This document shows, piece after piece, positions 23,886-64,000 of a DNA stretch of 64,000 bases. A program made the translations under genes and the position numbers. The notes below the pieces were generated by a model. That model searched no databases. It was not told the origin of the DNA and worked only from the letters and a program-made list of their open reading frames with translations. Origin of the DNA: an uncultured Clostridia bacterium (GTDB lineage Bacteria > Bacillota > Clostridia > TANB77 > CAG-508); NCBI GenBank assembly GCA_934184665.1, contig CAKPSX010000003.1:7806-71805 (forward strand), written 5' to 3'. Position 1 is the first letter of the stretch; each line of letters opens with the position of its first letter.

Positions 23886-23973
23886 TGGTGCAGATGGCCG
23901 GAATCGAACCGGCACGGTTTATTCAACCGCAGGATTTTAAGTCCTGTGCGTCTGCCAGTTCCGCCACATCTGC
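23886..23973 (-). tRNA. tRNA-Leu (anticodon UAA)
   Basis: 88-nt cloverleaf folded by hand. Acceptor GCAGATG/CATCTGC, anticodon arm CAGGA-CTTAAAA-TCCTG, long variable arm, T-arm GCCGG-TTCGATT-CCGGC, and encoded CCA. Confidence 0.9.
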
Positions 23974-46475: not shown

Positions 46476-46549
46476 GCGGGTATAGTTTAATGGCAGAATT
46501 CCATGCTTCCGACCTGGTGGTGAGGGTTCGATTCCCTCTACCCGCTCCA
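46476..46549 (+). tRNA. tRNA-Gly (anticodon UCC) with an atypical anticodon arm
   Basis: 74-nt cloverleaf. Acceptor GCGGGTA/TACCCGC, T-arm GAGGG-TTCGATT-CCCTC, encoded CCA, and anticodon arm CCATG-CTTCCGA-CCTGG. This arm has a U30-C40 mismatch and G at position 37. Confidence 0.8.
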
Positions 46550-61361: not shown

Positions 61362-61808
61362 TTATTTCATATTTTCTTTTTCTATTTCTTCTATTAGTTT
61401 TATTCTTTCTGCATGTCTGCCACCTTCAAATGGTGTTGCTATCCATGCTCTAACTACACATATTGCTGTGCTTGTTGTAATATAATCCGCTCCTAATGCA
61501 AGTATATTGCTGTCATTATGCATTTTTGAAAATTTTGCTTCTTCTTCATTCTCGCATTTTGCACATCTTATTCCTTTAAATTTATTTGCAACAATACTCA
61601 TTCCTATTCCTGAACGGCATATTAAAATTCCACTATTACATTCTTTGCTTTGTACTCTTTTTGCAACATCTTTTGCTATATCAGGATAGTCTACACTTTG
61701 TTCTGAATATGTTCCACAGTCTTTATATTCTATTTCTTTTTCGTCTAAATATTTTTTTATTTCTTCTTTTAGTTTATATCCTCCATGGTCACTACCTATA
61801 GCTATCAT
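61362..61808 (-). CDS. rpiB: ribose-5-phosphate isomerase B
   Basis: 148 aa with the motifs IAIGSDHGG and ICRSGIGMSI. Confidence 0.93.
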   Translation of the reverse strand: MIAIGSDHGGYKLKEEIKKYLDEKEIEYKDCGTYSEQSVDYPDIAKDVAKRVQSKECNSGILICRSGIGMSIVANKFKGIRCAKCENEEEAKFSKMHNDSNILALGADYITTSTAICVVRAWIATPFEGGRHAERIKLIEEIEKENMK

Positions 61809-62037
61809 ATTACCACATCCTTTTCTTCTTTTTGAATTTTACTTCTATAATATATCACAATATCATTTTAAGTGCAATATTTTTGGCTAAAATAGATGTA
61901 TTGCGCTTTTTATCGAGCGCAAACTATTTTATGTAAATTGTGTAAAAAATTTGTAAAACACCTATTGCCAAATGTTGACTTATATGTTATAATGATAGAC
62001 GTTATAGTTTATTTTACTAAGAGGAGGTGCATTATAC

Positions 62038-62304
62038 ATGCCAAATATTAAATCAGCAAAAAAGAGAGTTAAAATTATTGAAAAGAAAACATTAACAAAT
62101 AATATGATAAAAACTGGATATAAATCAGCTGTAAGAAAATTCGAAGAAGCTATTGCTGCTGGTAATATAGAAGAAGCTAAAGTTCTATGTTCTAAAGCTA
62201 CTAAAAAAATAGACCAAGCTTGCACAAAAGGTGTAATCGTTAAAAATACAGCTTCAAGAAAAAAATCTAGCTTATCTAAGAAATTAAATGCTGCTATGGC
62301 ATAA
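62038..62304 (+). CDS. rpsT: 30S ribosomal protein S20
   Basis: 88 aa beginning MPNIKSAKKRVK. It is preceded by TTGCCA-17-TATAAT and AGGAGG. Confidence 0.95.
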   Translation: MPNIKSAKKRVKIIEKKTLTNNMIKTGYKSAVRKFEEAIAAGNIEEAKVLCSKATKKIDQACTKGVIVKNTASRKKSSLSKKLNAAMA

Positions 62305-62310
62305 TTGTAA

Positions 62311-62347
62311 CCCCCTAGACTCATCCTATACTGGATTGTCTAGGGGG
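62311..62347 (+). terminator. rpsT terminator
   Basis: CCCCCTAGAC ... GTCTAGGGGG 10-bp stem followed by a T-rich tail. Confidence 0.75.
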
Positions 62348-62404
62348 TATTATATTATAAAAAGCCATTAATTTACACATTATCCTTTTCTGGTTTTATT
62401 TCGT

Positions 62405-62620
62405 TTAGTTTATTTCTTCATATTCTATTCTGTCTTTTATTACTACTACTGAATAACTCTTTAGTTTGGGTAGCATTTTTATTTCTTCTGCGTTTCTGTA
62501 CTTTTGTAGCTGTTCTTTTGCTTGCTCTTGTTTTTGCTTTAGCAGGCTATTGTCTTTTACATAATCTTCTTGTTTTATATATTTGAATTCTATTAATATG
62601 CTATATCTTTCTTTTATCAT
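62405..62620 (-). pseudogene. C-terminal fragment of a PD-(D/E)XK (DUF1703-type) nuclease-domain protein
   Basis: The 71-aa piece, with ILIEFKY (E-x-K) and a QLQKY tail, resembles the C-terminus of proteins that pair an AAA-ATPase-like domain with a PD-(D/E)XK domain. The N-terminal 400+ aa are absent. Confidence 0.5.
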
Positions 62621-62687
62621 TGTTGAAAATACATATCCATCATAGCATGAATAATTTTGGGAATTGTAGAATAAAATAAATAAGGTA

Positions 62688-62716
62688 TTGACTATGATAC
62701 TTAAAAGTATTATAAT
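62688..62716 (+). promoter_or_regulatory. consensus sigma-A promoter of the candidate antitoxin sRNA
   Basis: TTGACT-17 nt-TATAAT. Confidence 0.65.
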
Positions 62717-62722
62717 TAATAT

Positions 62723-62801
62723 AGCTTAAGCTAGTAATTTAAGAAATTCATTTGTGTAGATTCACAAAAAATCCCTAGAGTGCAAGTCTAGGGATTTTTT
62801 T
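62723..62801 (+). ncRNA. candidate type I antitoxin sRNA (about 80 nt)
   Basis: It runs from the consensus promoter to the terminator ATCCCTAGAG-tgcaa-GTCTAGGGAT plus a T-run. It carries AGTAATTTAAGAA...CATTTGT, a direct repeat of 62851-62877, and is therefore complementary to the toxin start region. Confidence 0.5.
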
Positions 62802-62804
62802 CGT

Positions 62805-62873
62805 CTAATCATTAAATTCTTTTAATATATTAAGAATAATGATTAATGCAAGTAATTTAAGAATTTTTTTCAT
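62805..62873 (-). CDS. candidate type I toxin, a 22-aa hydrophobic peptide
   Basis: MKKILKLLALIIILNILKEFND. SD GAAAGGTGGTG lies 9 nt upstream, a 5' UTR CCTTTC segment can pair with the SD, and the ORF ends at the shared bidirectional terminator. Confidence 0.5.
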   Translation of the reverse strand: MKKILKLLALIIILNILKEFND

Positions 62874-62919
62874 TTGTACCAATTCACCACCTTTCTACCT
62901 TTAAGCGAAAGGCTTTTTT

Positions 62920-62948
62920 ATTATAAGGTATTTTACTATAATTGTCTA
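62920..62948 (-). promoter_or_regulatory. promoter of the candidate toxin mRNA
   Basis: On the minus strand, TAGACA-17 nt-TATAAT. Confidence 0.55.
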
Positions 62949-63126
62949 GCGATTTTTATAAAAGGACAAATAAAGAAACATAACCAAATTATTTACTTAT
63001 TTTCAATGTTTATATGATTTTTTAGAAATAACTCATATAATCGTTCAATAAAACACGTATTGAAAACTCAAACTAGTTCCTATATAATTAGGATAATTCA
63101 AGATTTCAATACGTGCTTTTATTAAC

Positions 63127-63432
63127 TTATCCAACTCTTAGTAAACCTCCCACCTTTAATAACATTTGTGAAAAGCGATTTTCTTTTTCATCTAAATCTA
63201 TCAAATCAAATTCATTCTCTAATTCAAACATTAGTATGCTTGCGACCTTATAAAAATTCTTTTGATTTAGTCCTTTTACCGCAATATCTATATCTGAATT
63301 TTTATTAAATTTTCCGTTTGCAATAGAGCCAAAAATAAATACTTCTGTTGCTCCATTTTCTTTTAAGATTCGAGTTGCTTTCTTTATATCTTCTTGATAT
63401 GAATATGGTAAATCACCTAGTTTATCAACCAT
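63127..63432 (-). CDS. MntA-like minimal nucleotidyltransferase with no HepT partner
   Basis: The start is set at MVDKLGDL, after AAAGGAGG. The NTase motif is FGSIANGKFNKNSDIDIAV. A long imperfect hairpin (63053-63120) follows immediately. Confidence 0.75.
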   Translation of the reverse strand: MVDKLGDLPYSYQEDIKKATRILKENGATEVFIFGSIANGKFNKNSDIDIAVKGLNQKNFYKVASILMFELENEFDLIDLDEKENRFSQMLLKVGGLLRVG

Positions 63433-63561
63433 TTGTGTGCCTCCTTTAATCTTAGTATACACATATTTTTATAAAAAATAAATGAATTTTAGGTATTTTT
63501 ATGAATTTAATAGGTGAAGGTGTTGGGCTATTTGATGAATAAGGTGCAGCGTAACCCGATG

Positions 63562-64000
63562 CTATCGTATCTGTAGTAAGGACCGTGGTAGAATGCCACG
63601 GAATGCCACTGAACCGTTGTCGCCATTGCCATCACGAACGAACCTATTGTAGCCGATACCTGAACTATCAGATTCTAGTGTCCAATCTTTTACATTACCT
63701 GCTAAATCGAAAACATTGTTCGCATTTGCTCCTTCATATGCTCCACTTGGGATTCTTGTTCTAGTTCCTGATGCCTTTGTTGCTGTGCTCTTTGATGTGT
63801 TTGTATAATATGTGAAACTACATTTATAATAATTTCCCCAACTTGTTGAATCTGAGGCTATCTCTGCATATGTCTTCTCTCCTGTGTCTATTAGCCACTT
63901 TAATGTTTCATCGAACTGTATTCCCCATATCATCTGCACTCCTGCACTTGTTCCTGATAACTTTCTCGCTTTTTTCCACATTGTATACCAAGTTTGATAT
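63562..64000 (-). CDS. partial GC-rich ORF, possibly an FGE/SUMF1-like domain, running off the window
   Basis: The frame is open to the window edge. GNVKDWT resembles the GNVWEWT motif. A hand count gives 31/60 G+C at 63541-63600. The last roughly 25 codons may be frameshifted, because the alternative frame reads ...YDSIGLRC. Confidence 0.4.
   Translation of the reverse strand, partial: YQTWYTMWKKARKLSGTSAGVQMIWGIQFDETLKWLIDTGEKTYAEIASDSTSWGNYYKCSFTYYTNTSKSTATKASGTRTRIPSGAYEGANANNVFDLAGNVKDWTLESDSSGIGYNRFVRDGNGDNGSVAFRGILPRSLLQIR

Follow-up and report, generated by a model that had tools for sequence, protein, structure and literature searches.

A stretch of 64,000 nt from contig CAKPSX010000003.1 of an uncultured Clostridia bacterium (in what follows, the window) carries on its minus strand an open reading frame (ORF) of 22 codons, towards which a plus-strand promoter is directed. 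Does this locus encode a type I toxin-antitoxin (TA) module, with a small hydrophobic toxin and a convergent antisense small RNA (sRNA) arranged as in the par system of Enterococcus faecalis? An earlier note, made from the sequence letters, had suggested that it does. Having analyzed sequence elements, predicted structures, conservation and covariation, we think it probable that the locus, read as a whole, is a par-like type I TA module; antisense control alone we rate higher than this reading, and toxicity of the peptide alone we rate lower. The family of cassettes to which the locus belongs appears to be new and unannotated, and of a known kind. Annotation of type I TA loci is very rare, and what is known of them comes mainly from cultured pathogens; the present family is found in uncultured, very low-GC Clostridia, mostly of the human gut.

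The cassette spans 62646–62987 (∼342 nt, with boundaries defined by BLAST against the loci of other strains) and includes both promoters, everything between them and ∼40 nt on each side. The features that the earlier note had described (the minus-strand ORF with its promoter and strong Shine–Dalgarno (SD) sequence, the converging promoter, the common terminator, the direct repeat over the ORF start) are all present, at the following coordinates.

62688–62716, plus strand: promoter of the putative antitoxin sRNA, TTGACT-17-TATAAT, 11/12 consensus positions; faces the ORF
62723–62802, plus strand: predicted antitoxin sRNA, ∼80 nt, with ends placed from promoter and terminator
62725–62766, plus strand: sRNA region complementary to the toxin initiation region (RNAduplex), 42 nt
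62766–62800, both strands: predicted bidirectional intrinsic terminator of both transcripts; arms 62766–62779 and 62787–62800, 14/14 complementary, 7-nt loop
62805–62873, minus strand: putative toxin ORF, 22 codons and stop, MKKILKLLALIIILNILKEFND; ATG at 62873, TAG at 62807–62805
62805–62846, minus strand: predicted hairpin within the ORF, codons 10–14 with codons 18–22 and stop; −8.1 kcal/mol, z = −2.5
62842–62888, minus strand: predicted mRNA target of the sRNA (3′-end of the SD, spacer, AUG and about the first 10 codons)
62884–62896, minus strand: extended SD AGAAAGGTGGTGA, very strong; AUG 13 nt after the GGTGG core
62890–62913, minus strand: predicted 5′ stem-loop of the toxin mRNA, anti-SD CCUUUC (62912–62907) with GAAAGG (62895–62890); minimum-energy fold of −8.9 kcal/mol
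62948–62920, minus strand: putative toxin promoter, TAGACA-17-TATAAT, 11/12 consensus positions

The encoded peptide is hydrophobic, with a Lys-Lys N-terminus, an aliphatic core and a C-terminus formed by KEF and acidic residues. A hydrophobic peptide of <60 amino acids (aa) with charged ends, adjoined by an RNA predicted to be antisense to its mRNA, would place the locus in the type I class as this class has been defined (PMC6563280; PMC8594479). A 25-aa form starting at an in-frame TTG (62882) was also considered and rejected, as the TTG is out of frame in relatives.

Judging from the promoter and the terminator, the toxin mRNA would start at ∼62913 and end near 62764, thus having a length of ∼150 nt. 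The sequence GCCTTTCGCTTAAAGGTAGAAAGGTGGTGA begins ∼7 nt past the toxin promoter; there the extended SD offers a GAAAGG that can pair with CCTTTC at the 5′-end of the predicted transcript. This pairing, which had been proposed as a means of sequestering the SD, is indeed a part of the minimum-energy fold. The complete predicted mRNA fold includes the SD-sequestering 5′ hairpin, an open initiation region, the hairpin within the ORF and the terminator.

The sRNA promoter is preceded by a conserved A/T-rich stretch (62646–62687). The terminator, with a fold energy of −17.3 kcal/mol (z = −5.5), has a 14-bp stem that takes in the flanking A and T runs; being a perfect inverted repeat flanked by an A-run and a T-run, it can work from both directions. 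A simple terminator scan of the window listed nothing at 62766–62800; in our reading, this happened because the A and T runs lengthen the stem and consume the T tail. As the two RNAs would share a single bidirectional terminator, their terminator hairpins and 7-nt loops are perfectly complementary. The loop on the mRNA, CUUGCAC, contains CUUG, a case of the YUNR (U-turn) motif; by eye, the motif is present in ∼7 of 11 subtypes, with the reservation that so short a motif has a high chance rate. It is not universal among Fst loci either (PMC7472228).

The core of the direct repeat, AGTAATTTAAGAA-N(3/7)-CATTTGT, has exactly two occurrences in the 64-kb window versus 0 expected. The full repeat is longer than first described: positions 62730–62765 (copy 2, in the sRNA gene) align with 62848–62887 (copy 1, in the mRNA target), with 17/19 and 15/19 matches and a 4-nt indel. 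The repeat could in principle have belonged to a genome-wide family unrelated to small ORFs. This was rejected: the motif is found only twice in the window, a profile hidden Markov model (HMM) of the module found no further copy there, and in other species the second copy changes together with the ORF start.

Separately, we observed a palindrome at the predicted 5′-end of the sRNA (62723–62732), conserved at this position in most family members; it reads AGCTTAAGCT in the window, and several other subtypes have GCTTATAAGC. Its contribution to the predicted duplex is small, and a role as a protective 5′ hairpin or as a binding site for a protein is conceivable.

Pairing of the two predicted RNAs

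The first 45 nt of the sRNA have no significant structure (z = 0.09); the terminator hairpin follows them. The 5′ 42 nt are predicted to pair with the mRNA from −15 to +32 (62888–62842), a stretch that begins within the final bases of the SD and extends to about codon 10–11, with the A-run of Lys codons 2–3 left unpaired. The energy of this duplex, computed by RNAduplex apart from the trivially complementary terminators, is −34.3 kcal/mol versus −14.0 ± 2.9 kcal/mol for 1000 dinucleotide shuffles, none of which was as good (0/1000); among 2000 random genomic 45-mers none reached it either. Complementarity of the sRNA to the initiation region, as originally proposed, is thus well above what such DNA provides by chance.

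Relatives of the cassette, collected as described in the next section, made it possible to look for covariation between the two RNAs. Each mRNA initiation region was joined to the 5′-end of its own sRNA. The consensus contact consists of two helices, one at mRNA positions −6 to +3 and the other at codons 3–7, split by the unpaired A-run of the Lys codons. Compensatory changes were seen in 12 of the 22 intermolecular pairs (at one position, for example, U-A in seven members and C-G in seven), while column shuffles gave 6.5 ± 1.4 (0/500 as many). The fraction of intermolecular cells that are paired, 94.8%, was 83% in column shuffles (0/500 reached the observed value) and fell to 33–43% when the partners were slid. 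Finally, cognate duplexes had a mean energy of −31.2 kcal/mol and non-cognate ones of −20.6 kcal/mol; no permutation of partners out of 100,000 was as good. In a comparison of relatives, a functional antisense antitoxin should show itself by just such a signature: a predicted sRNA–mRNA pairing over the initiation region that compensatory substitutions preserve. The cassette offers a clean, covariation-backed sRNA–mRNA pair for experiments.

Specificity of the pairing is not uniform. The sRNAs of loci L041 and L023 would bind the mRNAs of L018, L025 and L036 with −27 to −36 kcal/mol, as strongly as the cognate partners do (−26 to −30 kcal/mol); cross-talk between subtypes is therefore conceivable. 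L018 and L033, two different subtypes residing in one metagenome-assembled genome (MAG), gave cross pairs of only −13.5 and −22.5 kcal/mol versus −29.8 and −37.2 kcal/mol for the cognate ones.

A mechanism could be proposed in which transcription, the order of RNA contacts, the relative stabilities of the RNAs, membrane insertion and toxicity are what we infer. The minus-strand mRNA of ∼150 nt would code for the 22-residue hydrophobic peptide; in the nascent mRNA the 5′ CCUUUC would fold onto the SD and hold translation off. The convergent plus-strand sRNA of ∼80 nt would be made from its near-consensus promoter. The complementary terminator loops might provide the first kissing contact; next, the single-stranded 5′ 42 nt of the sRNA would pair with the mRNA in two helices, from just inside the SD to about codon 10–11, blocking ribosome binding and perhaps triggering cleavage. 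Should the level of the sRNA fall, the peptide would be made, insert into the membrane and arrest or kill the cell.

The family, its copies and its remnants

Family members were collected with two patterns. Pattern 1 specified ATG, AAR at K2, K3, K6 and K18 and NTN (T at the second position) at the hydrophobic codons; it left free the length, the stop codon, E19, F20, the last two residues and the SD. A scan of 185,579 species genomes (one per GTDB species) gave 28 loci. Sixteen of them, in 15 species-representative MAGs, constitute the true family; the other 12 were longer proteins or ORFs without an SD, and were rejected. All 16 members have exactly 22 aa, a KEF[DEN][DNT] end and an SD of the GAAAGG[AT]GGTG type; their hosts are labelled as uncultured Clostridia, Clostridia bacterium or Clostridium sp., and the fetched stretches have 24–30% GC. 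Pattern 2, in which positions 4 and 6 were relaxed and KEF was required, was run on metagenome contigs; all of its 26 matches were family members, a specificity (26/26) that makes it usable as a search tool. Among contig names stating a source, most name the human gut.

The family consensus is MKK[FIL][IL]K[IL][ILMV][ASV][LM][ILV][FILV][IV]L[FLNY]I[LM]KEF[DEN][DNT]. In all 42 homologues the peptide has 22 aa, contains KEF and ends in acidic or polar residues, and neither pattern required the length, the last two residues or the SD. Conservation of the peptide length, of E19 and F20, of the stop codon, the acidic end and the SD, none of which was imposed by pattern 1, is therefore independent evidence for a real gene. 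Codon differences point in the same direction: 39% of them are synonymous in frame versus 16% and 5.5% in the other two frames. A 24-aa ORF in L020 and L031 was considered as a second peptide family and rejected; in our reading, it appears out of frame inside a larger ATPase-type coding region.

The HMM of the module detected 45 full-length and 6 partial copies over all fetched DNA, with no second copy within the 64-kb window. The flanks of the copies fell into at least 15 unrelated clusters on each side, i.e. at least 15 genomic contexts, and in the 17 independent loci examined closely the architecture is kept as a unit. Each of the 17 members has a TTGAC[AT]-17-TATA[AC]T promoter directed at the ORF, in a common orientation and at a common place, its −10 box being 76–93 nt past the toxin stop codon. 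The distance is 134 nt in L018, where a second, different terminator-like hairpin has been inserted after the shared terminator (L018:2170–2479). The promoter-like hexamers of the toxin gene are located at the same place relative to CCTTTC in all members. Their −35 box is weaker than that of the sRNA promoter (TTGAC[AT] throughout); the sRNA promoter is thus consistently nearer to consensus, as expected if the antitoxin must be in excess. The SD is GAAAGG[AT]GGTG in most members, with single-base variants in a few.

RNAalifold, run on 11 divergent mRNAs, produced three helices (the anti-SD/SD hairpin, the ORF hairpin and the terminator) with 95% of the cells paired versus 39–62% when slid. The anti-SD/SD hairpin has nine pairs, with 97% of cells paired; its CCUUUC:GAAAGG core is invariant in 11/11 aligned members and its apical pair covaries (CG in 8, GC in 2, GU in 1). 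In the ORF hairpin, 93.8% of the cells of 16 pairs are paired, with compensatory changes in three pairs; in the terminator such changes occur in six stem pairs across the family. In the sRNA alignment the terminator is the only conserved structure, and the 5′ half would therefore be left free.

Signs of carriage by mobile replicons were looked for as well. BLASTN of the cassette against plasmids and phages gave short AT-rich chance matches or none. In the viral contigs of IMG/VR, the exact repeat pattern had 0 matches and the degenerate codon pattern had five, all of which lacked both an SD and the C-terminus typical of the family. No sign of phage carriage was therefore seen.

Several copies are incomplete. 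In L043 (6642–6812) the toxin promoter, the 5′ untranslated region (UTR) and codons 1–18 have been deleted, with the terminator and the sRNA gene intact; in L066 (1140–1338) the toxin ORF is present, but unrelated sequence has replaced its promoter, 5′ UTR and SD, and the sRNA gene is kept; in L019 (329–483) the deletion runs exactly between the direct repeats and leaves the two promoters facing each other. Remnants that lack the toxin part or its expression signals and still have the sRNA gene provide the one hint, an indirect one, that the peptide may be toxic and neutralized by the sRNA. Strain-variable presence, many contexts, multiple and tandem copies, and decayed copies that retain the sRNA gene are together behaviour typical of TA loci.

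Many copies are linked to tRNA genes. In most close relatives, at least 19 copies in all, the toxin ATG is located ∼133 nt downstream of a same-strand tRNA-Lys(CUU), and a small terminator hairpin separates the two. tRNA-Lys and module together form a unit that is tandemly duplicated in L069, which has two of them, and in L043 the tRNA-Lys precedes the orphan sRNA remnant. The linked loci are as follows.

L035, L039, L040, L042, L045, L049, L051, L052, L054–L056, L059–L061, L065 and L067; L069:2475–3500; L043:6839–6914

A second subtype converges on a tRNA-Gly/tRNA-Cys pair (L057:1818–1960; compare L018:1961–2479, L053 and L068). Near the window copy there is no tRNA; the window has just two tRNAs, Leu-UAA at 23886 and Gly-UCC at 46476.

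Known systems and rival explanations

The hallmarks of par are convergent promoters, a shared bidirectional terminator with complementary loops for the first kissing contact, direct repeats DRa/DRb over the initiation site and a 5′ stem-loop on the SD (Weaver 2020, PMC7472228). All four of these RNA-level hallmarks have predicted counterparts in the cassette. As in par (Fst/RNA I–RNA II of E. faecalis pAD1) and the Fst-type loci of Firmicutes, the promoters converge on one bidirectional terminator; the direct-repeat segments would be transcribed oppositely, with the sRNA pairing to the toxin initiation region outside the overlap; and the toxin mRNA has a predicted stem-loop at its 5′-end that would sequester the SD. 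According to T1TAdb (PMC8594479), pairing away from the overlap is a peculiarity of two families, Fst/RNAII and SprA1. Fst, too, is a small hydrophobic toxin with a charged N-terminus and an acidic C-terminus, and the cassette peptide has F20, between core and charged tail, where Fst/Ldr has Trp; both the Fst-type loci and the cassette family are chromosomal and multi-copy (PMC7472228). Differences from par are also seen. The cassette peptide has 22 aa and Fst-pAD1 has 33 aa (PMC7472228); the sRNA is ∼80 nt long and the par antitoxin RNA is ∼40 nt long; the ‘upstream helix’ formed in par between the 5′ and 3′ parts is not predicted in the cassette mRNA, which has the conserved hairpin within the ORF instead. 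The hosts of the cassette are uncultured low-GC gut Clostridia, unlike those of par.

In SprA1/SprA1as of Staphylococcus aureus the toxin, PepA1, has ∼30 aa, and neither the peptide nor the RNA of the cassette has sequence similarity to this system. As predicted for the cassette, the sRNA overlaps the 3′-end of the mRNA, and functional pairing occurs at the 5′ initiation region (PMC8594479). PepA1 has been placed in the Fst/Ldr family (Weaver 2020, PMC7472228).

Type I modules are known in Clostridia: those of Clostridioides difficile (CD2517.1–RCd8, CD0956.2–RCd10 and relatives) have, like the cassette, convergent overlapping genes and small hydrophobic toxins that previously were unannotated (PMC6563280). 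Their toxins have 34–59 aa and Lys-rich C-termini, and many of the loci are in prophages or beside CRISPR arrays, unlike the cassette (PMC6563280); a separate direct-repeat pairing region is not mentioned in that review. No sequence similarity between these modules and the cassette was found.

The Ibs toxins of the Escherichia coli Ibs/Sib system, multi-copy and chromosomal, are very short (18–19 aa) and almost wholly hydrophobic; peptides of such size can therefore be membrane toxins. This system belongs to a Gram-negative species and lacks the layout with a bidirectional terminator and direct repeats; the Sib RNA covers the complete ORF as a full antisense transcript (PMC8594479). With 22 aa, the cassette peptide is below the 28-aa lower bound given for type I toxins of Bacillus subtilis (PMC6563280), and the cassette would add to the class a new toxin family with an unusually short peptide.

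A number of observations weigh against the cassette being a par-like TA module. The aliphatic stretch of the peptide has only ∼14 residues (I4–L17), K6 included, which is short for a transmembrane helix, and the spacing from SD to AUG is long (10–14 nt after GGAGG). Pfam-A hmmscan of the 22-aa and 25-aa forms gave 0 families at E up to 10, and the NCBIfam search of the peptide gave noise (weak matches to Phr_nterm and EbpS, E = 0.3–0.9). The PXXXG motif of Fst/Ldr is absent, with no Pro or Gly at any position of the 14 distinct family sequences, and so is the Fst/Ldr Trp; the invariant Phe (F20) at the analogous position of the cassette peptides is a resemblance, not a signature. Part of the peptide character was forced by the search patterns, and the respective positions are therefore no independent evidence. 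Rfam cmscan of 61800–64000 at E up to 10, in which the antitoxin families compared were the 13 type I TA families cited in T1TAdb, gave terminator-like noise below threshold (NsiR1 with 24.8 bits, where the gathering score is 39; PyrR and others fell short of their own scores by more). Promoter-like hexamers are not significant in this DNA of 24–28% GC (9 found versus 10.8 expected); the promoters have weight because their position is conserved across the family, not by the hexamers alone. Gene conversion could add to the apparent covariation, because both pairing regions are direct repeats at the DNA level, and the remnant in L019 shows that these repeats do recombine. In L057 the sRNA body comes directly after the CCA end of tRNA-Cys, with its own promoter and the GCTTATAAGC 5′-end missing; the antitoxin may be made there as a 3′ trailer of tRNA-Cys, a case that rests on a single 2.9-kb metagenome contig.

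Further searches also gave negative results. A scan of the whole window at Rfam gathering thresholds found two tRNAs only. No exact copy of ten tested peptide variants was found among 15 billion predicted proteins, a collection in which proteins so short are evidently not called. The C-terminal motif of the peptide was not found in the literature searched, and nothing similar appeared in the type I TA literature.

The Pfam Fst_toxin profile had no match at E = 10. As the peptide has no Fst sequence signature, the likeness to par is one of mechanism and architecture, and homology is not demonstrated. The resemblance to par/Fst proposed earlier was one of architecture, and the four RNA hallmarks support it; the Fst peptide signature (PXXXG, Trp, Pfam match) is absent. 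By its predicted RNA elements the cassette would work like par, and by sequence it is not filed as a member of Fst; 22 residues are too few to tell a very diverged Fst from a convergent solution. It would add a second, sequence-unrelated toxin on the par wiring (3′ overlap, 5′ pairing), which bears on the question of single versus repeated origin of this wiring. One might go further and see here an independently evolved par-type addiction module with a non-Fst 22-aa toxin, spreading and amplifying in tandem as a ∼560-nt unit with tRNA-Lys(CUU), a minimal selfish element that holds an accessory tRNA gene and that in L057 has its antitoxin made as a tRNA-Cys 3′ trailer; we regard this extended scenario as doubtful.

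Among the alternatives to a par-like TA module, the one that survives best is an antisense-controlled small membrane peptide with a normal role (a membrane-protein modulator or a stress peptide), harmless at native levels. All RNA-level evidence fits it equally well, the hydrophobic core is short, and many copies are chromosomal, between housekeeping genes. Still, we consider such a role unlikely: the cassette is present in some strains of a species and absent from others, occurs in tandem or multiple copies, and has decayed copies of which some dropped the peptide gene or its expression signals and still have the sRNA gene, which is a pattern of selfish TA loci; moreover, a double lock on translation (SD hairpin plus antisense RNA) is typical of toxic products (PMC7472228).

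Alternatively, the repeats and the conserved sequence flanking them could be structural parts (sites of recombination or attachment, for instance) of a DNA element, small and mobile or recombining, that is associated with tRNA genes; the complementarity of the hypothetical RNAs would then be a by-product of the DNA repeat. The distance of ∼133 nt from tRNA-Lys(CUU) in at least 19 copies, the tandem unit of L069, the repeat recombination in L019 and the discrete cassette boundaries all speak for such an element. It would leave unexplained, however, the conserved ORF of fixed length with its surplus of synonymous changes, the conserved strong SD with the anti-SD hairpin and the conserved, inward-directed promoter pair around a bidirectional terminator; besides, the repeat sequences vary by subtype and always track the ORF start, and no recombinase gene is consistently nearby. 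We judge this explanation to be very improbable.

Ranked after it, and similarly improbable in our view, is the possibility that the family was once functional and the window copy is a decaying or silent relic, not expressed or no longer toxic. Decayed copies do occur elsewhere, the window copy is in a degraded patch beside a gene remnant, and two differences of its mRNA from the L019 type weaken the duplex from about −39 to −34.5 kcal/mol. On the other hand, all its elements are intact (11/12 positions in each promoter, a complete ORF, a perfect terminator), and it is preserved at 98–100% identity in five contigs of the same species, where the few changes are synonymous, conservative or outside the pairing regions. 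As to a leftover signal peptide of a truncated secreted protein or lipoprotein gene, with repeat and promoters arising by chance in AT-rich DNA, the MKK start with a hydrophobic run, the weak Phr_nterm/EbpS matches and the chance density of promoter-like sites could suggest it, but we rejected it on the fixed length and C-terminus (42 homologues stop after exactly 22 codons with the same KEF and acidic or polar end, in at least 15 contexts), with the repeat (2 versus 0 expected) and a duplex 7 standard deviations beyond shuffles pointing the same way.

Strain variation and neighbouring genes

We return to the probable par-like module in its genomic setting. In the window species the cassette is present, by BLAST, in five metagenome contigs (L005–L008 and L011, with the identity given above) and missing from L001–L004, L009 and L010; in L002 the flanks resume at window positions 62645 and 62988. 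Strain differences within the cassette include K2 AAA to AAG, which is synonymous and falls within the unpaired A-run, and N21D, which is conservative; further ones are in the terminator loop and the tails, i.e. outside the pairing regions.

The S20 protein encoded next to the cassette is found on many human-gut metagenome contigs, and a comparison of ten of these loci showed hypervariable DNA downstream of rpsT. The cassette marks a strain-variable spot beside rpsT in the window species. What follows rpsT in the window and in L001–L010 differs by contig: it may be the AAA-ATPase_like/PDDEXK_9 gene in intact form, one additional gene of ∼415 aa, the cassette together with a 71-aa remnant, or a 100-aa ORF replacing the nucleotidyltransferase.

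Both neighbours named in the earlier note, a nuclease remnant and an orphan nucleotidyltransferase, could be identified. The ORF at 62405–62620 (71 aa) corresponds to the C-terminus of an AAA-ATPase/PDDEXK_9 gene of which other strains have an intact copy; this gene is located directly 3′ of rpsT, with a length of 569 aa in both L002 and L004 and of at least 424 aa in L010, whose contig ends within it. The ORF at 63127–63462 (minus strand) is a Polbeta/NTP_transf_2 nucleotidyltransferase that resembles MntA, with 40 bits, below the cut-off of 60. MntA is the antitoxin of type VII HepT/MntA systems; a HEPN partner ORF was not found adjoining 63127–63462. Directly downstream of this nucleotidyltransferase, at 63043–63126, we observed an inverted repeat, long and imperfect, whose 33-nt arms are 76% complementary and which has a TTGAAA-17-TATAAT site inside it.

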